Source of the DNA: a bacterium
GTDB lineage: Bacteria; Actinomycetota; Acidimicrobiia; Spongiisociales; ZC4RG35
DNA length: 64,000 nucleotides
NCBI GenBank assembly: GCA_028824015.1
Contig: JAPPFC010000030.1
Coordinates: 98-64,097, forward strand
Direction of reading: 5' to 3'
The translations under genes and the position numbers were made by a program. Shown here piece by piece: positions 5,714-61,400 of the stretch. Below the pieces are notes generated by a model. That model was given only the letters and a program-made list of their open reading frames with translations, did no database searches and was not told where the DNA came from. How positions within the stretch are numbered: the first letter of the stretch is position 1; each line of letters opens with the position of its first letter.

Positions 5714-6937
5714 ATGGCAGAGGATGATCGGGTTGTGTTCGGTGGGGTGGACACCCATCGAGATGTTCATGTCGCAGCGGTGGTGGATACGGCCGGTCGG
5801 GTGTTGGCGTCATCGCCGTTCCGAGCCGACGCCGCCGGCTATGAACAACTGCGTGACTGGCTGGGGTCACACGGCAATCTTGCCCGGGTCGGTGTGGAGG
5901 GTACCGGCAGCTACGGCGCCGGTTTGGCCCGCCATCTTATGAGAGTCGGTGTTGAGGTAGTGGAAGTGAACCGTCCGAACCGGCAGCTCCGCCGCCGGTA
6001 CGGCAAGACCGACACCACCGACGCCCAGGCCGCAGCGCGGGCGGCTCTGAACGGGCAGGCCAGCGGGGTGCCCAAAAGCAGCGATGGACCAGTCGAGGGG
6101 ATCAGGATGCTGTCGGTGGCTCGTCGTTAGGCGATCAAGGCCCGCACACAGGCCATCAACCAGATTCATGCTCTGGTGGTTACTGCTCCCGACCAGGTCA
6201 AACACCACCTATCGGGTCTTTCCCCAAAAGCCCGTGTCAAGGTCTGTGCCGCGTTCCGGCCTGGCACCGCTGACACCACCACCCGACACGCCAAACAGGC
6301 CCTACGACTGTTGGCCCGCCGATACCAGACCCTCACCGCAGAGATCAAAGAGATGGACACCGAGATCCGGCGTCTCTGCGCACAGGCCAATCCCGCGCTG
6401 TTAGCCACCCCCGGTGTAGGTCCTGACATCGCCGCCCCGCTGCTAATCGCCGCCGGTGACAACCCCGAACGGATGACCACAGAAGCGTCCTTCGCCGCGT
6501 TGTGCGGTGTGAGCCCCGTCCAGGCGTCCTCGGGCCATATCGTCCGCCATCGCTTGAACCGGGGTGGAAACCGCCAGGCCAACCAGGCGCTGTGGCGAAT
6601 AGCCACTATCCGCACCGTTAGAGACCAGCGCACCATCGCCTATGTGAAGAAACGCAAAGCAGAAGGCAAAACCCGCCGAGAGATCATCCGCTGCCTCAAA
6701 CGGCACATCGCCAGAGAGATCTATTACCTGTTGACCAACCCCCCGCCAACACCCTCCGGCGCCGATCTCCGCTGTCTACGCCGAAACGCCCAAACGACCC
6801 TTGCTCAGGCCGCCACCGCCCTCCACAGCCACGCCACGCGCATTTCACGACTCGAAAGAGGCCTCGACCACAACCACCAACTCGCTACCCGATACCACCA
6901 CTGGCTCACCACCCCCAAACCCGATTTGACAACATAG
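5714..6937 (+). mobile_element. IS110-family transposase gene interrupted by an in-frame TAG at 6128-6130 (N-terminal DEDD part 5714-6130; C-terminal part 6131/6176-6937)
   Basis: N-terminal GGVDTHRDVHVAAVVDTAGRVL...GVEGTGSYGAGLARHL is the IS110 DEDD catalytic region. Downstream ...PGVGPDIAAPLLIAAGDNPERMTTEASFAALCGVSPVQASSGHIVRHRLNRGGNRQANQALW... is the IS110 C-terminal domain. Both parts are in the same reading frame (5714 and 6176 both = 2 mod 3). The residues just after the stop (AIKARTQAINQIHALV) are the expected conserved linker. Confidence 0.8.
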
Positions 6938-6971
6938 GCGCATCCCACCCTGGGTTTGGTGGTTTTAGGCT

Positions 6972-7700
6972 AGCGGGTCTCCTTTCGGTCGGTGTTTTCT
7001 GGCTTGTGCTTGGTATGAGCGGAGGCGGTAGCTGTCGCCGGTGATGGTGAACACCACGCTTTTGTGGAGGAGTCGGTCGAGATGATGTCACGCCGAGGTT
7101 GGTGGTGAGGATGATCGATCCTTTCTGGTATCGGCGCGAGATCACTTGGAACAGTGTGGCGGCGTCTTCTGCCGGCATTGGGAGATAACCGAGTTCGTCG
7201 ATGATCAACACTTTCGGGGTGTTGAAGAACCGCATGGTTCTGGCCCATCGTCCTTGTAGGGCTGCTTTGCGGCAGCGTGCGGCCAGGTCGGCTGCGGTGG
7301 TGTAGTACACCTTGTGTCCGGTGTCCACCGCAGCCCGTCCGAGGATGACCGCCAGCATGGTTTTGCCTACTCCTGGTGGTCCGATGAATAACACGTTGGT
7401 GGCGTCAGCCAGATACGCCCCGGTGACCAGTTCCCGTATGAGTTTCTCGTTGATGCTGGGTTGTGCTCCGAAGTCGAAGTCTTCCAGTTTCCATCGGGTG
7501 GGGAAGTTCGCCAGTTTCAACCGGGTTGCCCATCGGCGGTGTTCGGCGGTTTCCACCTCGACCCGCAACAGCTCCTCGAGGAACTCGGTATGACCCGCAC
7601 GGTTCTGTCGTGCCCGTTCCAGGTGGGTGGGGAGCGCCTCGGCAGCAGCCGCCAGGTTCAGGTAGGCCAAATGTGAGAGGAAGGACTCTGCGCCAAGCAA
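6972..7700 (-). pseudogene. istB: IstB-like ATP-binding helper of an IS21-family element; frameshifted near the C-terminus and lacking a cognate istA
   Basis: Walker A GPPGVGKT, Walker B LIIDELGYLP and IILTTNL match IstB. The conserved tail SVVFTITGDSYRLRS sits in a different frame from ~7090. The next upstream gene on this strand is pfkA, not istA. Confidence 0.6.
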
Positions 7701-7833
7701 AGGTGACGGAGATTTGACTGGGGAGCCGTTTGTGGCTCCCTGGAGCGGTGTGAAGGCACCCTGGTCCCAAGAAACCCGCTGCCTTAGGTCTTGTGTAAGA
7801 CGCAGACGCGGTACGGTCCGTTACTGCCGATCC

Positions 7834-8949
7834 TCAGAACGCCATGGCGCCGTGGATGGCCTCCAGGCGATGGATCCGTTCGTTCTGGAGGTCTGAGGTC
7901 CCCTCGGTGAGGAGTTGGGTCTCCTGAAGGACGGAGTCGAGCGGGAAGAGCTTCACGAATGCGTCGCTGGTGGGCTCTCCCCGATCGGAAGTCGACCAGC
8001 ACACCATCACTCCCGATCTGCCGGCCAGGATGGCCTGGACGGCGACCAATCCGAACCGACTGGCCAACATCCGGTCGCGAAAGGTCGGGTTCCCGCCCCT
8101 TACGATGTGGCCGAGGACGGTCGCCCTGACCTCCACGTGTTGCAGGTCGGCCACCGCTTCCGACAACTCCGCCACCAAGGCTTCGGTCGGAATCTTCACC
8201 CCCTCGGCCTTCAGGACCAGCACTCGCCTCTTCTGCCGGCGCCCCGAAAAGCTGTGGCGGACCAGGCGTTCCAGCCTCTTCACCACCTCCGTGCGCTCCG
8301 GGTTCTTCTCGGGGAGCAAGACCGCATCGGCACCGGTAGCGACGGCGCCCGCCAGAGCCAGGTATCCGCAGTCGCGCCCCATCACTTCCACGATGAAGGC
8401 GCGATGATGGGACCGGGCGGTGTCGCTGATCCGGTCGCAGGCATCCAGGATGGTGTTCAGCGCGGTGTCGACCCCCACGGATTCGCGGCTGTGGCCGATG
8501 TCGTTATCGATCGAGGCCGGGATGCCCACCACCGCCAACCCGTGTTCCGACCAGAGTGCATGGGCTCCCTCCATGGATCCGTTTCCGCCAATGACCAACA
8601 GCGCCTCCACCCCGCTGTCCCGCATCACCCGAGCAGCGTGGCGTCGGTGCTCCGGATCGAAGAAGCGTGTGGAGCGTCCCGTGCCCAGCATGGTCCCCCC
8701 CTGCCCTCCGACTCTGGGAAGTTCAGGGATGGGCGCCAGTCCTCCCGAGTGTGGATCGGTTTGGACCAGAGGTCGGAACTTCCCATTGATCAGTCCCTCG
8801 TATCCCCCTTCCACTCCCACCACCTCAGCTCCGGCCGACGCCGCCACCTGCACGGCCGAGACGATGGCGGCGTTCATTCCGGGAGCGTCGCCTCCCGAGG
8901 TCAGGACGGCCATCTTGCCGATCTGGGGTCTGACGGTGTTACAGGGCAA
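7834..8949 (-). CDS. pfkA: ATP-dependent 6-phosphofructokinase
   Basis: MAVLTSGGDAPGMNAAI..., GGDGS-type motifs (VIGGNGSMEGA), MGRDCGYLAL. The real start may be the internal Met at ~8913. Confidence 0.85.
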   Translation of the reverse strand: MPCNTVRPQIGKMAVLTSGGDAPGMNAAIVSAVQVAASAGAEVVGVEGGYEGLINGKFRPLVQTDPHSGGLAPIPELPRVGGQGGTMLGTGRSTRFFDPEHRRHAARVMRDSGVEALLVIGGNGSMEGAHALWSEHGLAVVGIPASIDNDIGHSRESVGVDTALNTILDACDRISDTARSHHRAFIVEVMGRDCGYLALAGAVATGADAVLLPEKNPERTEVVKRLERLVRHSFSGRRQKRRVLVLKAEGVKIPTEALVAELSEAVADLQHVEVRATVLGHIVRGGNPTFRDRMLASRFGLVAVQAILAGRSGVMVCWSTSDRGEPTSDAFVKLFPLDSVLQETQLLTEGTSDLQNERIHRLEAIHGAMAF

Positions 8950-50167: not shown

Positions 50168-52228
50168 ATGAAGAGACTTTTAGTGTTGCTCTTGGTGGTC
50201 GGTCTGGTGGCGGCCGCATGCGGCGACGACGAGGCGGAAGTCACCCCGGACGAGATCGGCGACGAAGTTACAACCACCCCAGAGGAGTCGGACGAGGCCG
50301 AGCCGACCCCGACCGCGCCTGAGGAAGAGGCCGAAGTCACTTTGGATGAGTTGAATGTGGCTTACTTTTTGGAGTGGCCCACGGCCAACCAGGTTGCTCA
50401 GGCGGAGAAGACCTATGACCAGGCGCTCGGCGTGACCGTGAACTGGATACCGTTTGCCAGCGGAGGTGACATGGCACAGGCCATGGAGGCCGGAGACATC
50501 GACATCTCCTATTCCCAGGGGTTGACGCCCTTTGCCAACTTCGTGACGGGAGGTGCGGACCTGGTTCTTGTCGGGGTGGCAGTGGCTTACGCGGATGCCG
50601 ATAACTGCGTGGCCCATCCTGACTACGGCGTCACCAAGGAAAACGCCGCAGAGACCCTGGCCGGCCAGAGCATCTACACGCCGCTGGGGAACGTCACTCA
50701 TTTCAAGCTTTTGAAGATGTTGGAGCATCTGGGGGTTGAACTTGACAGTGTCGAGTTGATCCAGTCCGAGGGTGGACCGGCGGCGGTAGCCGCGCTTGAC
50801 ACCGGCAACGTGGCCATGGCGTGCGCGTTCGGCGGTGCCGTCAACGCCATGATCGCCAACGGCGGCAACCTGGTGATGACCGGTACGGAGCAGGAAGCCA
50901 TCGGGATCCGGGTGTTCGACATCATCTCGACAACCGGCACCTTCGCCGCTGAACATCCCGACGTCATAACTGCGTTCCTGCAGGTGACCGAGGACGCCAA
51001 CCGTGCTTACAACGATGACCGGGAACCGTTCATCGACACCATCGCAGGTGCGGCTGGTATGGACCGCGCTTCGACCATCGCTCTGCTGGACGCGTTCAGC
51101 TTCCCCGAAAAGGACGCGCAGCTTTCGGATGCGTGGCTCGGGGGAACCGTGCAGTCTGTGATGAAGGAGCAGATGGACTTCTTCGTGGAACAGGGCGAGA
51201 TCGACTCGGCCCTCGCCGACTACAGCCAGTTCGTGGACACCAGCTTCCTCGAAGGGGTCACGGCCAGAGAGGTCGCGATGACCGATGCCACGCCCGAGAT
51301 GACCTTGGATGAGTTGAATGTGGCTTACTTTTTGGAGTGGCCCACGGCCAACCAGGTTGCTCAGGCGGAGAAGACCTATGACCAGGCGCTCGGCGTGACC
51401 GTGAACTGGATACCGTTTGCCAGCGGAGGTGACATGGCACAGGCCATGGAGGCCGGAGACATCGACATCTCCTATTCCCAGGGGTTGACGCCCTTTGCCA
51501 ACTTCGTGACGGGAGGTGCGGACCTGGTTCTTGTCGGGGTGGCAGTGGCTTACGCGGATGCCGATAACTGCGTGGCCCATCCTGACTACGGCGTCACCAA
51601 GGAAAACGCCGCAGAGACCCTGGCCGGCCAGAGCATCTACACGCCGCTGGGGAACGTCACTCATTTCAAGCTTTTGAAGATGTTGGAGCATCTGGGGGTT
51701 GAACTTGACAGTGTCGAGTTGATCCAGTCCGAGGGTGGACCGGCGGCGGTAGCCGCGCTTGACACCGGCAACGTGGCCATGGCGTGCGCGTTCGGCGGTG
51801 CCGTCAACGCCATGATCGCCAACGGCGGCAACCTGGTGATGACCGGTACGGAGCAGGAAGCCATCGGGATCCGGGTGTTCGACATCATCTCGACAACCGG
51901 CACCTTCGCCGCTGAACATCCCGACGTCATAACTGCGTTCCTGCAGGTGACCGAGGACGCCAACCGTGCTTACAACGATGACCGGGAACCGTTCATCGAC
52001 ACCATCGCAGGTGCGGCTGGTATGGACCGCGCTTCGACCATCGCTCTGCTGGACGCGTTCAGCTTCCCCGAAAAGGACGCGCAGCTTTCGGATGCGTGGC
52101 TCGGGGGAACCGTGCAGTCTGTGATGAAGGAGCAGATGGACTTCTTCGTGGAACAGGGCGAGATCGACTCGGCCCTCGCCGACTACAGCCAGTTCGTGGA
52201 CACCAGCTTCCTCGAAGGCGTGGACTAG
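50168..52228 (+). CDS. NitT/TauT-family (NMT1/ThiY/SsuA-like) ABC substrate-binding lipoprotein containing an in-frame tandem duplication of the whole binding domain
   Basis: Lipoprotein signal MKRLLVLLLVVGLVAAACG. The mature region 50342-51254 is identical to 51305-52217 (offset 963 bp = 321 codons). Confidence 0.7.
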   Translation: MKRLLVLLLVVGLVAAACGDDEAEVTPDEIGDEVTTTPEESDEAEPTPTAPEEEAEVTLDELNVAYFLEWPTANQVAQAEKTYDQALGVTVNWIPFASGGDMAQAMEAGDIDISYSQGLTPFANFVTGGADLVLVGVAVAYADADNCVAHPDYGVTKENAAETLAGQSIYTPLGNVTHFKLLKMLEHLGVELDSVELIQSEGGPAAVAALDTGNVAMACAFGGAVNAMIANGGNLVMTGTEQEAIGIRVFDIISTTGTFAAEHPDVITAFLQVTEDANRAYNDDREPFIDTIAGAAGMDRASTIALLDAFSFPEKDAQLSDAWLGGTVQSVMKEQMDFFVEQGEIDSALADYSQFVDTSFLEGVTAREVAMTDATPEMTLDELNVAYFLEWPTANQVAQAEKTYDQALGVTVNWIPFASGGDMAQAMEAGDIDISYSQGLTPFANFVTGGADLVLVGVAVAYADADNCVAHPDYGVTKENAAETLAGQSIYTPLGNVTHFKLLKMLEHLGVELDSVELIQSEGGPAAVAALDTGNVAMACAFGGAVNAMIANGGNLVMTGTEQEAIGIRVFDIISTTGTFAAEHPDVITAFLQVTEDANRAYNDDREPFIDTIAGAAGMDRASTIALLDAFSFPEKDAQLSDAWLGGTVQSVMKEQMDFFVEQGEIDSALADYSQFVDTSFLEGVD
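50342..52217 (+). repeat. Near-perfect direct tandem repeat: 915 bp at offset 963 bp
   Basis: The 100-aa antisense ORFs 50698-51000 and 51661-51963 are identical. The 579-aa antisense ORF contains the same ~200-aa block twice. Direct comparison of 50342.. and 51305.. agrees. Confidence 0.85.
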
Positions 52229-52313: not shown

Positions 52314-53687
52314 GTGCAAGGAGTCGTTGACGGGCTGGCAAGAGCCTTTGGCGCGGTCACACAGGGTGTTGCCGCCTCTGCCGACCTGTTTGCTTGGGTT
52401 GCGTTGGCCGCGGCGGCCGCGGCGACGGTGTGGATGATCGTCAATCTCCTGGCTACACCCTCGGGGCGGTTCGTCGCTGCCGACCGGGCTGCTTTGCCCA
52501 GCGACGGCACCCTGCTGGTCGGACAGGTCATGGCGTTGACCGCTCTGTTGGTCGGCGTGGTTCTCTCGTTCCAGGAATCTCCCGCGGTTTGGCAGTCTGT
52601 GGTCCCAATGGTCGGCGGCGGCGCCCTGCTGGCCCTGTTGGTGGTCTACCGGCGCTCCGCCGACGACCGCCAGGCCCGTATGGCGCATGCTGTGTGGCTG
52701 GCCCTGGCCGTGGCAGTCGCCGCGTCTACTCTCGTCGCCTATCTGGTGCGTTCGGGTTCGGCAATCGTCTATTTGACATTGCTCGGGTTGGCTCTGCTGG
52801 TCGCCAGGGCCTGGCTTTTCATCGGGCGCCCTGAGGTGCGTTTCGATCCCTCCCAGTTGACGGTGACCACCGATTCGCGGACGGATCATCCACTGGTGGT
52901 GGAAGACGTGGGGATGATCTACGACCTGCCCGACGGCGGTCAAGTGGAAGCCCTGGCCAATGTCAGCTTCACATTGGAACCGGGCCGGTTGCTGACCTTG
53001 CTCGGCCCGTCGGGCTGTGGCAAGACCACACTCCTGAACATAGCGGCGGGATTCCTGGCGCCCACCTCGGGCGTGGTGAGGCTGGGAACCCAACCCATCA
53101 CCGGACCCGGCCAGGACCGGGGCATGGTCTTCCAGCAGGGAGCCCTGTTCGAGTGGCTCACCGTCAACGACAACGTGGGGTTCGGCGCCCGCATGAACGG
53201 CAGGTCCCGGCCCGCGTCCCGCGAGGCAGTGCAAGACCTGCTGCGCACCGTCGGACTGCAGGGATTCGGGGACAAGGCCGTCTATGAGTTGTCGGGCGGG
53301 ATGCAACAGAGGGTGGCTCTGGCTCGCTGCCTGGCCAATGACCCCGAGATCATCCTGATGGACGAACCCCTGGGGGCCCTGGACGCTCTCACCCGGGAGA
53401 AAATGCAGGCGCTGGTGCTGGACCTGTGGAACAAGACCGGCAAGACCATCATCTTGGTGACCCACAGCGTCGAGGAGGCCCTGTACCTGGGAGACCAACT
53501 CTTCGTGATGGCCCCCCGCCCGGGCCGCATCGAACGGCGATACGACTTGCCCTTCGCCAAAGAAGCCCTCACCGCCGATGCCCGTGAGTTGAAGACCTCG
53601 TCGGAGTTCATCTCGACCCGCGAGGAAATCCTCACGATGATCTGGGAAATGGAGGAACAGATCATGGGGACCGAGGGAGGCCGCTGA
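52314..53687 (+). CDS. ABC transporter ATP-binding protein (SsuB/TauB type) with an N-terminal ~190-aa 4-TM membrane extension
   Basis: Walker A GPSGCGKTT, signature LSGGMQQRVALAR, Walker B ILMDEPLGALD. The upstream in-frame region has four clear hydrophobic helices. Confidence 0.75.
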   Translation: MQGVVDGLARAFGAVTQGVAASADLFAWVALAAAAAATVWMIVNLLATPSGRFVAADRAALPSDGTLLVGQVMALTALLVGVVLSFQESPAVWQSVVPMVGGGALLALLVVYRRSADDRQARMAHAVWLALAVAVAASTLVAYLVRSGSAIVYLTLLGLALLVARAWLFIGRPEVRFDPSQLTVTTDSRTDHPLVVEDVGMIYDLPDGGQVEALANVSFTLEPGRLLTLLGPSGCGKTTLLNIAAGFLAPTSGVVRLGTQPITGPGQDRGMVFQQGALFEWLTVNDNVGFGARMNGRSRPASREAVQDLLRTVGLQGFGDKAVYELSGGMQQRVALARCLANDPEIILMDEPLGALDALTREKMQALVLDLWNKTGKTIILVTHSVEEALYLGDQLFVMAPRPGRIERRYDLPFAKEALTADARELKTSSEFISTREEILTMIWEMEEQIMGTEGGR

Positions 53688-54748
53688 TGGCGGAGACAAG
53701 ACCCCCCGACAGCGGCGGCGTGGGAACCATTAGGGGCACTCTCGCCGCGCTGTTCAGGCGATTCGGGTACCGCCGTGGAGGCACCGAAAGCGCCGGGAAG
53801 ACGGTCACCTTCGGCGACGCGGCGGTGGTCAAAGGCTCCCTGGCATGGACCATCCCCAGCCTCCTGGTCATCTTGGCGGTGTGGTATCTCGCCACCAACG
53901 TCTGGGGGATGCCCCAAGAGTGGGTAGAGCACGGAGAACAGGTTCGAGCGGGCCTGTCCGCCGACGAGAGCTACGGCCAGCGGGACCTACTGAGGGACTG
54001 CGAAGCCTCCCAAGAAAACCCGGGTGACTACCCCGGTCTCCCGCCCTGCTCCTACACCCAGTGGGTGAGCGAACGGGTGCTGCCCAGCCCGGCACAACTC
54101 TGGGACGCCTCGTGGAACTTCGCCCTGTACGGCTACAGCGGATTCTCGATGTGGGACCACCTCTGGTTGAGCTTCAGCCGCCTGGCCAAGGGACTCTTCT
54201 GGGGAGTCATCCTCGGCGTGCCCATCGGCCTGGCCATGGGTCTCTCCAATCGCTGGCGCGGAGTATTCGATCCCATAGTCGAGTTGCTCAGACCGATTCC
54301 GCCCCTGGCCCTCATCCCGCTCTTCATCGTTTGGTTCGGAATAGGCGAAGAGGGCAAGGTGAACCTGCTCCTGTTCGCTTCGATCTGGATCATGGTCATC
54401 GCGGCCCGCTCGGGCGTGCTGGCGGTGAACATCAGCAAGGTCCATGCCGCCTATTCGCTGGGCGCCTCCAAATCACAGATCCTCCGACACGTCATCCTCC
54501 CAAACGCCCTGCCCGAAATACTCACCGGAGTCCGGGTAGCGATAGGAGTGTGCTGGGGCACCCTGGTGGCGGCCGAACTCCTGGGCGCCAGTGCCGGACT
54601 GGGATTCACCATCTTCAAAGCCCGCCAGTTCTTCCTGCTGGACCTCATGCTCTCCGCAGTGATCCTCATCAGCATCCTCGGCGTAACCATGGACATCGTC
54701 ATGCGCATGGCCGAAAAACGCCTCATCCCCTGGCGAGGAAGAGGCTAA
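53687..54748 (+). CDS. ABC transporter permease (SsuC/TauC type)
   Basis: ATGA overlap with the ATPase stop. EAA-like loop region (ASKSQILRHVILPNALPEI). An extended Cys-containing periplasmic loop after TM1. Confidence 0.75.
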   Translation: MAETRPPDSGGVGTIRGTLAALFRRFGYRRGGTESAGKTVTFGDAAVVKGSLAWTIPSLLVILAVWYLATNVWGMPQEWVEHGEQVRAGLSADESYGQRDLLRDCEASQENPGDYPGLPPCSYTQWVSERVLPSPAQLWDASWNFALYGYSGFSMWDHLWLSFSRLAKGLFWGVILGVPIGLAMGLSNRWRGVFDPIVELLRPIPPLALIPLFIVWFGIGEEGKVNLLLFASIWIMVIAARSGVLAVNISKVHAAYSLGASKSQILRHVILPNALPEILTGVRVAIGVCWGTLVAAELLGASAGLGFTIFKARQFFLLDLMLSAVILISILGVTMDIVMRMAEKRLIPWRGRG

Positions 54749-54873: not shown

Positions 54874-55512
54874 TCAGCCAGTCGATTCTGTTGTCGAACC
54901 TGGGGCAACACTGCCCATCAACTTCGCAAAGAGGGCAAGCCAGTTTTGTTCGGACGGAATGTAGGGATCCGCCAGTCCGGCAGCCAACAACAGATGGGTT
55001 CCGATTCCGATCGCTTGACAAAACAGCGTCAAGGCAGCGGTGTCCTGTTGGGAGTCGCAGAATCCCTCGTCCTTGCTCCTCTCGATCATCACGCCCAACT
55101 GGTGGGCTTGATCGTTTAGGAAACCCTTGAGGCGTTCTTGGATGACCTCGTTGTTGCGGGCGCTGCCGAACACCTGCACCAGCACGTCTTTTGTTTGTTC
55201 AGGCTGCAACAGTTGGGCTGCCCACCCCAGGACCATAACGGTTGTGGGCAAGTCCGCGATACCCATGTCCCTGATCCTCTGTTCGGGCAATAACTGCTCG
55301 AAGAGATGGTCGAGGGCAGCGGCCATCAGATCACTTTTGTGAGGCCACCGCGGGTATACCGCACCAGGGGTGACCCCGGCGCGGCGGGCGATGTTGCTGA
55401 TGACTGCCTTGTCATACCCGCGTTCTACGAACTCTTCGGCGGCAGCCTCCAGCACCCGCCTCGCGGTCTCCTCCGAGCCGCGTCGCCGACGTAATCTGAC
55501 TTCGGTAGGCAT
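54874..55512 (-). CDS. TetR-family transcriptional regulator
   Basis: N-terminal HTH (RRVLEAAAEEFVERGYDKAVISNIARRAGVTPGAVYPRWPHKSDL). Confidence 0.75.
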   Translation of the reverse strand: MPTEVRLRRRRGSEETARRVLEAAAEEFVERGYDKAVISNIARRAGVTPGAVYPRWPHKSDLMAAALDHLFEQLLPEQRIRDMGIADLPTTVMVLGWAAQLLQPEQTKDVLVQVFGSARNNEVIQERLKGFLNDQAHQLGVMIERSKDEGFCDSQQDTAALTLFCQAIGIGTHLLLAAGLADPYIPSEQNWLALFAKLMGSVAPGSTTESTG

Positions 55513-58498: not shown

Positions 58499-61400
58499 TT
58501 GCTTCGGCGGGTCCTCACGGTCGCGGCCAGGCGGGTCTCTGCGGGCGGCTGGCAGTGATATTCGTGACGGTGTTGCTCCTGATCACCGCGTTGGGACCGC
58601 TGGCGGCGGCTCAGGATGGAACGGGATCGGGTTCGGGTGTGTTTGGGGATGTGGGTCCGGGGCCGCATTGGGCTGCGGTTGAGGCGTTGGCGTCGTTGGG
58701 GGTGTTCGAGGGTACCGAGTGTGGTGAGGGGTTCTGTCCTGACGACCCGGTGCAGCGTTGGGTGATGGCGGTGTGGTTGGTGCGGGTGCTGGACCTGGCT
58801 TTGCCGGCGGTCGATGAGCCGCGGTTCGTCGATGTTGAGGCGTCGCAGTGGTGGTGGCGTTATGTGGAGGCGTTGGCGGAGGCTGGGGTGACGCGGGGTT
58901 GTGCCGAGGAGCCGGCGCGGTTCTGTCCGGACGGTTCGGTGTCTCGGTCGGAGATGGCGTCGTTTCTGGTGCGGGCGTTCGGGCTGGAGCCGGCGTTGGA
59001 GAGCGCGGGGTTTGTGGATGTGCCGGTGGGTGGTGCGAGTTGGCTTGATATCGAGGCTTTGGCTGCGAGTGGGGTGACTTCTGGTTGCGATGCGGAGGGG
59101 CCTCGGTTCTGTCCCGATCAGCCCACCACCCGCGCTCAGATGGCAACGTTCCTGTATCGGGCCATGACTCTTGGTGCGGGTTTTGGTGTGTTTGGGGATG
59201 TGGGTCCGGGGCCGCATTGGGCTGCGGTTGAGGCTTTGGCGTCGTTGGGGGTGTTCGAGGGTACCGAGTGTGGTGAGGGCTTCTGTCCTGACAAGCCGGT
59301 GCAGCGTTGGGTGATGGCGGTGTGGTTGGTGCGGGTGCTGGACCTGGCTTTGCCGGCGGTCGATGAGCCGCGGTTCGTCGATGTTGAGGCGTCGCAGTGG
59401 TGGTGGCGTTATGTGGAGGCGTTGGCGGAGGCTGGGGTGACGCGGGGTTGTGCCGAGGAGCCGGCGCGGTTCTGTCCGGACGGTTCGGTGTCTCGGTCGG
59501 AGATGGCGTCGTTTCTGGTGCGGGCGTTCGGGCTGGAGCCGGCGTTGGAGAGCGCGGGGTTTGTGGATGTGCCGGTGGGTGGTGCGAGTTGGCTTGATAT
59601 CGAGGCTTTGGCTGCGAGTGGGGTGACTTCTGGTTGCGATGCGGAGGGGCCTCGGTTCTGTCCCGATCAGCCCACCACCCGCGCTCAGATGGCGACATTC
59701 ATCAAAAGGGCCCACCCTGCCCTGGTGGCGTGTCCCAACGACATGCGGGAATCCGACCCCGAGGACGACACCAGCGGAGGTGGAGGCGGCGCCGGTGTCG
59801 GTGTCGGTGGAGGCGGCGGTGGTAGCGGTGGAGGCGGCGGTGGTAGCGGTGGAGGTGGAGGTGGCGGTGGACGTAGAACCCCAACCCCCGTTCCGACTCC
59901 GCAAGTTCCCGGAACGCCCCAGAACGTGTCGGCGGTGGGAGGGGACGAGTCGGTTGCCGTGGAGTGGTCGCCGCCGACCGATGACGGGGGGTCCCCGGTG
60001 ACCGGCTACCTGATCCGCTGGAAGCGGGCAACGCGAGCGACGTACAGCGATTCGAGACTGGCTGGTGCTGCGGCCCGCAGCATCGAGATCACCGGTCTGC
60101 TGCCCGCCACGCAGTATGACGTGTCCGTGGCTGCTGTCAGCGATGTCGGGGAGGGTGGCGCCGCAATCGTGCGGGCCACTACCCTGGATCCGCCTCCCGG
60201 CGCTCCCGGCGCCCCTCAGAACGTGTCGGCGGTGGGAGGGGACGAGTCGGTTGCCGTGGAGTGGTCGCCGCCGACCGATGACGGGGGGTCCCCGGTGACC
60301 GGCTACCTGATCCGCTGGAAGCGGGCAACGCGAGCGACGTACAGCGATTCGAGACTGGCTGGCGCTGCGGCCCGGAGCATCGAGATCACCGGTCTGCTGC
60401 CCGGTACGCAGTATGACGTTTCCGTGGCTGCAGTCAACGCATTGGGCACCGGCAGGTTCGAGGTCGGGCAGGCCACTACATTGGGCACCCCGCCCGATCC
60501 TCCCGGCCCGCCCCTCTCTGTGAACTTGGTTCGCGGTGTCGAGAGTCTCACCGTCACATGGTCGCCGCCCGCCGACGACGGTGGTACCCCGATCACGGGC
60601 TATGCCATGAGGTGGAGGAAGGAGAGTCAGCCGACGTCCTGGCTGCAGCGGTCGGTCGGATCCAACGAGCGCAGCACCGTTCTCGCCGACTTGGAGCGGG
60701 GGGAAGAATATCGAGTCGAGGTCTGGGCTGTCAACGATGCGGGAAATGGAACCAAGGTCGTCGAAATGGCCGAGCCGCTTGAGCTACCGGGCACGCCTCT
60801 GAGTGTGGCAGTGGTCGGCGGCATGGGAAGCCTGACCGTCTCGTGGTCACCGCCAACCGAAGACGGCGGATCGCCGATCACCGGATACCAGGTCCGTTGG
60901 AAACGGACCAACGAGTCGAGCTTCACCGACTCGACGAATCTGGGATCGGCAGTCCGTAGCTACCAAATCGTGAATCTGGACCCGGGCGTCGACTACCAGG
61001 TTGCGGTGGCAGCCGGAAACGTCGTCGGTCTCGGACCGGATTCCCAGGAGCAGTCCAAGGTGCCCGACGTGCCGCAAGCTCCGCTACTGCAGGAACCGGT
61101 GGTGGGTGAGGACAGTTTCATGCTGGAGTGGGCGCAACAAGAGGATGACACGGTGCCAATAACCGGGTACGAACTGCGGTGGAAACTGGCAGGGGCCACC
61201 AGTTACACCAACGAGCGACAGCTCTCGGCCGCCGACCGCAGTGTGGAGGTGCGCAACCTGACCGCCGGCACCGACTACGACGTGGCCCTCAACGCCACAT
61301 CCGCCAATGGCGATGGGCGGATCTCCGAAACGGAGGCGCAACTTATCGACGGACCGGCGCCGCCGGGTCCGCCCCGGGAACTGTCCGCGGTGCTCAGCCT

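Follow-up and report, generated by a model that had tools for sequence, protein, structure and literature searches.

An old two-domain TauA-type binding lipoprotein in a sponge-associated Acidimicrobiia bacterium, with domains apparently homogenised by gene conversion and an identity probably exaggerated by assembly

The window analysed here, 64,000 nucleotides (nt) of a contig registered as ROBB21-1_SAMN13943213 scaffold_503, carries a gene for a TauA-like substrate-binding lipoprotein in which the same domain stands twice, without a single difference between the copies in the DNA. The locus raises a simple question: how did one gene come to hold two identical binding domains? The sequence-only reading offered two answers, a very recent duplication or an assembly artefact. 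We consider a third answer fairly probable, namely that the two-domain lipoprotein is old, that its domains have been homogenised by gene conversion, and that their identity has been exaggerated by the assembly.

When the window was compared with itself at an offset of 963 nt, or 321 codons, no mismatches were found between 50342-51255 and 51305-52218, i.e., over 914 nt. So many consecutive matches cannot arise by chance. Both copies lie inside a single uninterrupted open reading frame on the plus strand (50168-52228, stop codon included, 686 amino acids (aa)), which was also called as a gene and which gave double matches in Pfam and NCBIfam, and a unique spacer of 49 nt (51256-51304) separates them. 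The in-frame exact tandem repeat and its offset were thus as first described, while the length of 915 bp ending at 52217 had to be corrected to 914 nt, with the second copy ending at 52218. A repeat scan of the whole window found no other long exact repeats that would suggest a generally faulty contig. Past the exact block a weak homology continues with substitutions, some of them synonymous (GAA/GAG and ACT/ACC to the left, GGG/GGC to the right), and the true domain unit therefore covers 50339-51259 for domain 1 (residues 58-364) and 51302-52222 for domain 2 (residues 379-685), both on the plus strand and 307 aa each. A single Asp follows domain 2 as the last residue. Between the domains lies a linker of 14 aa, TAREVAMTDATPEM (51260-51301, plus strand). 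Each copy aligned to residues 7-297 of the 298-residue crystal chain of Escherichia coli TauA, the best match among solved structures (E=1.4e-25; reference structures PDB 6SSY/6STL, PMC6906117), and the earlier description of an entire mature binding domain present twice, as a tandem fusion on one lipoprotein, agrees with these two complete TauA-type domains.

The N-terminus of the protein, MKRLLVLLLVVGLVAAAC followed by G, fits the usual lipobox pattern, as read from the sequence, and a signal peptide is predicted through the lipobox cysteine, Cys18 (50168-50221, plus strand). A17-C18-G19 is almost invariant across 42 homologues. From the pattern we infer that the two-domain protein is a lipoprotein. 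An acidic tether rich in Pro and Thr, about 39 aa long (50222-50338, plus strand), leads from the putative lipid anchor to domain 1; in the closest single-domain relatives (L037, L073 and L036) it is only about 7 aa. The start of the tether, DDEAEVTPDEI (50222-50260), resembles the lead-in of domain 1, EEEAEVTLDEL (50318-50356), at about 24 of 33 nt by eye, and the closest single-domain relatives run directly CGDDESEI|TLDEL, without the long tether. The long tether may hold a remnant of an older domain start. The mature protein would be ordered as lipid anchor, 39-aa tether, domain 1, 14-aa linker and domain 2. Structure prediction of the full protein from a 42-sequence alignment gave a mean predicted local distance difference test score (pLDDT) of 37.5, and no structural conclusion was drawn from it. 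Scans of 49.4-52.4 kb against Rfam and for promoters and terminators gave nothing above background.

The layout is widespread among relatives. A homologue search in 5.8 billion protein clusters returned 285 relatives, and the best 120 of these were examined for domain count; 118 had two domains (629-702 aa, among them one N-terminally cut fragment) and two had three (1007 and 1041 aa). Many were situated on contigs of 1-4.6 Mb from sponge-associated Acidimicrobiia. A scan with one genome per species yielded 78 loci, all from Acidimicrobiia. In 70 of them tauB and tauC stood behind tauA, and most of the others ended at a contig edge. About 35 species had two domains and about 35 had one (25 and 15, respectively, on contigs over 1 Mb), so that orthologs of both kinds exist, a point on which the sequence-only reading had suggested a check. 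An equivalent two-domain architecture extends across a large clade of related species. In the literature we found no description of tandem TauA or of tandem binding-protein lipoproteins, the papers on the candidate genera included.

The closest relatives give the age of the arrangement more directly. Two of them, L081 on a 533 kb contig and L080 on a 32 kb contig, have contig names in a style which we take to be that of the long-read assembler metaMDBG. Over a block spanning tauA, tauB and tauC they were 95.5% (L081) and about 92.5% (L080) identical to the window; for the tauA gene the values were 94.5% and 91.9%. Both share the 686-aa layout of the window, its reading frame and its 49-nt linker, at 46/49 nt in L080 and 45/49 nt in L081. 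As the linker is common to all three, the duplication must predate their split, and the two-domain state is old in the sense that it precedes the separation of the window strain from relatives 5-8% diverged.

If the duplication is old, the similarity of the domains calls for an explanation. Domain 1 and domain 2 were 91.5-100% identical as proteins within each homologue, while the homologues were only about 80-87% identical to the window; the nucleotide identity of the two domains within a gene was 0.877-0.997. Over 595 species pairs the within-gene distance was 3-9%, and the distance between species at the same position reached 21%. In close species pairs the orthology of domain 1 with domain 1 and of domain 2 with domain 2 was still visible. 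Where the same-position distance exceeded 11%, the within-gene distance (5-6%) was the smaller one in 99-100% of pairs, and same-position and cross-position distances were equal. This pattern did not change when only the 25 genes from contigs over 1 Mb were used. Between L081 and L080, 50 fixed differences were present in both copies, and internal differences between the copies numbered only 28 and 16. A runs test on variable sites was significant (p<0.05) in 21 of the 25 long-read genes on contigs over 1 Mb, with identical tracts of up to 885 nt. The ratio of nonsynonymous to synonymous substitution (dN/dS) between the domains was 0.10-0.38 in 24 of these 25 genes, and 1.57 in L007, which has 3 differences. 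Taken together, the within-gene uniformity has the signature of concerted evolution by intragenic gene conversion, with RecA-type recombination between the direct repeats as the likely mechanism. Homologous recombination between repeats 963 bp apart would repeatedly copy tracts from one domain to the other.

Concerted evolution by gene conversion is familiar from tufA/tufB and from the identical repeats of Gram-positive surface proteins. The present gene resembles the tufA/tufB type in that copies within a genome are closer than orthologues, in the mosaic of identical tracts and in a copy number driven by recombination. It differs in that the unit is a whole 307-aa ligand-binding domain within one transporter gene, and in that a short patch stays position-specific across species. 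This patch of 66 nt, about 22 aa (domain nt 595-660; 50933-50998 in domain 1 and 51896-51961 in domain 2, plus strand), begins a few residues past the ligand-binding Asp and was a hot spot of differences between the domains across 35 species; most species have different versions in the two domains. Typical sequences were TFAAEHPD in domain 1 and DFADTYPS in domain 2, and the within-gene divergence of the patch was 24%. Since it is position-specific across many species, the duplication in the large clade is older than those species. Outside the patch the domain has been homogenised since the duplication. The asymmetry of the patch may hint at a selected functional difference between the domains, e.g., in docking. 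With around 60 genomes that hold one, two or three copies, and with complete long-read chromosomes for many of these, the family offers a clean natural data set in which the length, direction and rate of conversion tracts within a bacterial gene could be measured.

The same recombination between repeats would occasionally add or remove a unit, giving one-, two- and three-domain genes among relatives. Species with one and with two domains were interleaved on a tree of TauB and TauC. One species (L069) has a single domain, yet its long tether and C-terminus are those of its two-domain sisters, which is what recombination between the units would leave behind. Relatives with three domains are P0001 (1041 aa), P0002 (1007 aa) and the distant P0121 (1020 aa). 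Three-domain proteins have linkers of their own, two different ones each, and in distant relatives at 55% identity the three domains were 88-89% alike. In one complete long-read genome (L056, 5121-5867) a full first domain is followed by a frame-shifted second domain, 77% identical and without the first 58 residues, which looks like a decaying unit.

The perfect identity of the window copies is a separate matter, and here a second sample was informative. Sample SAMN13943214 is represented by an assembly in ENA (L082) and by one at NCBI (L083, GCA_028820285.1); the two were assembled independently and are identical across the tauA gene. Over the 10-kb locus L082 did not differ from the window at any of 8,233 positions outside the repeat. 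Inside the repeat, 37 positions differed in each copy, and the two copies of L082 were again identical to each other. In copy 1 these positions fall within 50452-50968 of the window, and in copy 2 they lie 963 nt further on. The patch reads TFAAEHPDVITAFL in both copies of the window and TFADEHGAAITAFL in both copies of L082. The long-read relative L081 has TFAAEHPDVITAFL in domain 1 and TFADEHGAAITAFL in domain 2, and domain 2 of the long-read relatives in general carries TFADEHGAAITAFL or TFAEEHGAAITVFL. The window thus shows, in both domains, the domain-1 version of L081 and L080, and L082 shows their domain-2 version. Read most simply, these data mean that both versions are present in the strain, each in one of the domains, and that each short-read assembly merged them and traversed the resulting path twice. 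A second species behaved in a similar way. Ten assemblies with identical unique parts gave 0, 0, 3, 3, 8, 12, 12, 13, 16 and 18 aa differences within the gene, all of them subsets of the 18 on the longest contig, and the two assemblies without internal differences disagreed with one another at 6 positions, in domain 1 as well as in domain 2. All ten homologues with 100% identical domains were located on contigs shorter than 135 kb, and the 38 on contigs over 1 Mb reached at most 99.7%. Sibling genomes of the same accession series have SPAdes-style contig names, and the cluster of the window protein has only three full-length members. Most likely, a short-read assembler based on a de Bruijn graph merged a few percent of differences between the domains into one path and walked it twice, and the literal 914/914 identity is most likely not real. 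As a caution for other work, several percent of real divergence can be concealed where a short-read metagenome contig shows an internal repeat that looks perfect.

A number of observations weigh against the answer given above, in one or another of its parts. The collapse of the differences is inferred and was not seen in reads, and it is not automatic, as short-read assemblies of the family sometimes retain up to 16 of the 18 differences. The nested differences in the second species could also be real conversion polymorphism. On a complete chromosome, L007 has 3 differences in 918 nt and an identical tract of 885 nt, which means that near-perfect homogenisation does occur in nature. With respect to origin, the TauB and TauC tree places the window and L080 among single-domain relatives whose tether is short (7 aa). 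The window linker is weakly like the linkers of the large clade (EGRAGGSMAAADEMM, TGRPAG..., EGRAKP), but the residues in common are just an Arg at position 3 and the terminal E-M, too little in low-complexity sequence for homology to be called. The duplication in the window lineage may thus have been independent of that in the large clade. The ligand is uncertain as well: all cut-offs for taurine-family equivalogs were missed, and two ligand-binding residues of E. coli TauA are replaced (Gln30 by Phe, Glu106 by Asp).

The points on identity bear on a rival account in which the two copies truly are 100% identical. It would require a recent conversion of the full domain, domain 1 over domain 2 in the window strain and the opposite in the strain of the second sample. 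Such events are plausible in kind, given conversion tracts of 605-885 nt in long-read chromosomes and the near-identity of L007. Two opposite conversions would also leave the window of the domain-1 type and L082 of the domain-2 type at the patch, and the sequence of the second sample was the same from two assemblers. On the other hand, two independent, full-length and opposite conversions would have to fall in genomes with no differences over the 8,233 flanking bases. Moreover, no gene on a contig over 1 Mb showed zero differences, and every case of 100% was on a short contig. We regard true identity as unlikely, though as an account to be taken seriously, and merging of diverged domains during assembly as the better explanation.

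Much less probable, in our view, is a gene with at least three domains in this strain, shortened to two because the assembler went round the repeat loop no more than two times. The copy number is indeed not fixed by such a loop in the graph, and the three-domain relatives named above show that such genes exist. Nevertheless, L080 and L081 have exactly two domains, and the window has one type of linker where three-domain proteins have two different ones.

We give almost no credence to a brand-new tandem duplication of a single-domain gene in the window strain. The absence of differences over 914 nt would fit it, and the nearest species-level relatives in the genome collection, again L037, L073 and L036, are single-domain. 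A fresh tandem duplication would, however, leave a junction made of flanking sequence only, and about 30 of the 49 linker nt match neither flank. The tether and the DNA behind the stop codon were checked as possible sources of the linker, and a likeness to the tether end was found in only about 13 nt adjoining domain 2; the adjoining homology already has substitutions. The anatomy of the junction thus argues against a recent event, as do the same linker and frame in L081 and L080, 5.5% and 8% different across the gene, and the presence of the two-domain layout, at 661-702 aa, in over 115 clusters of homologues, and in about 35 species. The very recent duplication proposed at first is not supported. 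Equally remote is a duplication created by the assembly in an organism with a single domain: the contig is apparently a scaffold built from short reads, none of which can reach across an exact repeat of 914 nt, yet the linker joins domain sequence on both sides within 49 nt, less than one read, which requires at least two tandem copies, and a single-copy gene or a false duplication is excluded by the shared layout of the two long-read-style relatives and of 25 genes on contigs over 1 Mb, chromosomes among them. The suspicion of an artefact therefore fails for the duplication and probably holds for the perfect identity, a different perfect repeat having been found in a second assembly of the same strain.

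As for function, the similarity to E. coli TauA is carried by the best structure match, by agreeing family hidden Markov models and by TauB-like and TauC-like partners downstream. Pfam NMT1_2 (score 56.6, gathering score 24.7) and NMT1 (50.8, gathering score 20.5) were both above cut-off, each as two stretches, and NCBIfam TIGR01729 and TIGR01728 likewise gave two matching stretches each in the 686-aa protein. The taurine equivalog TIGR01729 requires 304.25 bits; one domain scored 141.6 and the whole protein, with its two domains summed, 270.5. For the SsuA_fam subfamily TIGR01728 the cut-off of 163.5 bits was missed per domain (97.6), and the whole-protein score of 184.5 bits exceeds it solely through summing of the two domains. 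In E. coli TauA, taurine is bound by Gln30, Gly61, Gly79, Glu106, Thr132 and Asp205 (PMC6906117). Ser60, Gly61, Gly79 and the taurine-selective Asp205 are conserved in the window domains, and Thr132 is ambiguous by one alignment column; the replacements of Gln30 and Glu106 were mentioned above. The ligand is probably a taurine-like aminosulfonate. Whereas E. coli TauA is a single free periplasmic domain, the window protein would place two domains on a lipid anchor.

The gene is followed on the same strand by a tauB-like gene for an ATP-binding cassette (ABC) ATPase at 52314-53687 (best NCBIfam match PRK11248, TauB, 273 bits, below the equivalog cut-off) and by a tauC-like ABC permease gene at 53687-54748 (Pfam BPD_transp_1; best NCBIfam match PRK10160, TauC, 216 bits, also below the equivalog cut-off). 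The order tauA-tauB-tauC is kept in about 70 related loci. The locus reads as an operon for an ABC importer of the tauABC type in a sponge-associated member of the Acidimicrobiia. It differs from E. coli TauABC in that the ATPase has an N-terminal extension of about 195 aa (52314-52898, plus strand), in which a hydropathy scan showed five hydrophobic segments. The extension was present with 44-70% aa identity in 66 of 70 related tauB loci and missing in the four remotest ones. It is unusual for the ATPase of an importer to have a membrane anchor, such as this extension would provide. Directly downstream of tauC, on the minus strand, lies a gene for a TetR-family protein (54874-55512), which is kept in L080, L081 and L082; its product is a possible regulator of the operon.

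To our knowledge, tandem binding domains have been well studied only in GlnPQ-type importers, whose domains differ. The likeness to GlnPQ of Lactococcus lactis, with its tandem SBD1-SBD2, lies in two binding domains on one polypeptide with a short linker, held at the membrane beside a type I ABC importer, and in the proposed benefit of extra capture sites near the translocator. The binding domains of GlnPQ are covalently joined to its transmembrane domain, and their specificities and affinities for ligands are not the same (PMC8025302). The window domains, by contrast, belong to the NMT1/TauA fold family and are encoded in a separate lipoprotein reading frame, with the permease at 53687-54748, and they are near-identical, presumably from continual homogenisation; across the family the two domains share 89-100% of their nucleotides. 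Two equivalent binding sites per anchor would give a higher density of ligand-capture sites beside the translocator. That a whole clade of sponge symbionts retains two near-identical TauA domains on a lipid anchor suggests that the dosage of binding sites is under selection. In sponges, taurine serves host and symbiont as a key currency (PMC10356861), which fits selection for more capture sites.

In one sub-clade, comprising Ca. Aldehydirespirator and its relatives, a circularly permuted TauA domain was found inside the reading frame of the TauB-like ATPase, which is 780-790 aa long (L003, 6188-8530; L004, about 6134-8503; L010, about 6136-8499; and L062). The order is residues about 223-307, a linker KGRGDGGSAAAVDTGG, and residues 2-226. 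The insertion lies between hydrophobic segments 2 and 3 of the TauB membrane extension, in a loop predicted to face outward, and it is in frame on the 1.18-Mb contig of L003 and in the chromosome-level L004 and L010, all apparently long-read. By its order the permuted domain looks like a one-unit excerpt of the array domain 1-linker-domain 2, i.e., a permutation by duplication. We propose, tentatively and with more doubt than confidence, that among sponge-associated Acidimicrobiia the TauA domain behaves as a recombination-driven module, present in one to three copies, homogenised except for the 22-aa patch, and captured as an excerpt in TauB in this sub-clade. If this were true, duplication would have produced a circular permutation in nature, and the insertion would be a new means by which an ABC importer holds a binding domain.

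Further fusions and repeats were noted. A search of representatives gave two Ser/Thr protein kinases, P0130 (721 aa) and P0136 (771 aa), each of which ends in a TauA-like domain that shares 43-50% identity with the domain of the window; these may be sensor kinases that use a sulfonate-binding domain. In the window itself, a large gene for a surface protein of fn3/SLH type contains two more tandem repeats, at 58628-59476 and 59879-60439, with periods of 549 nt at about 98% and 297 nt at about 92% identity. In the repeat with the 549-nt period the differences lie no more than about 120 nt from the left border, and an exact stretch of 398 nt comes after them.

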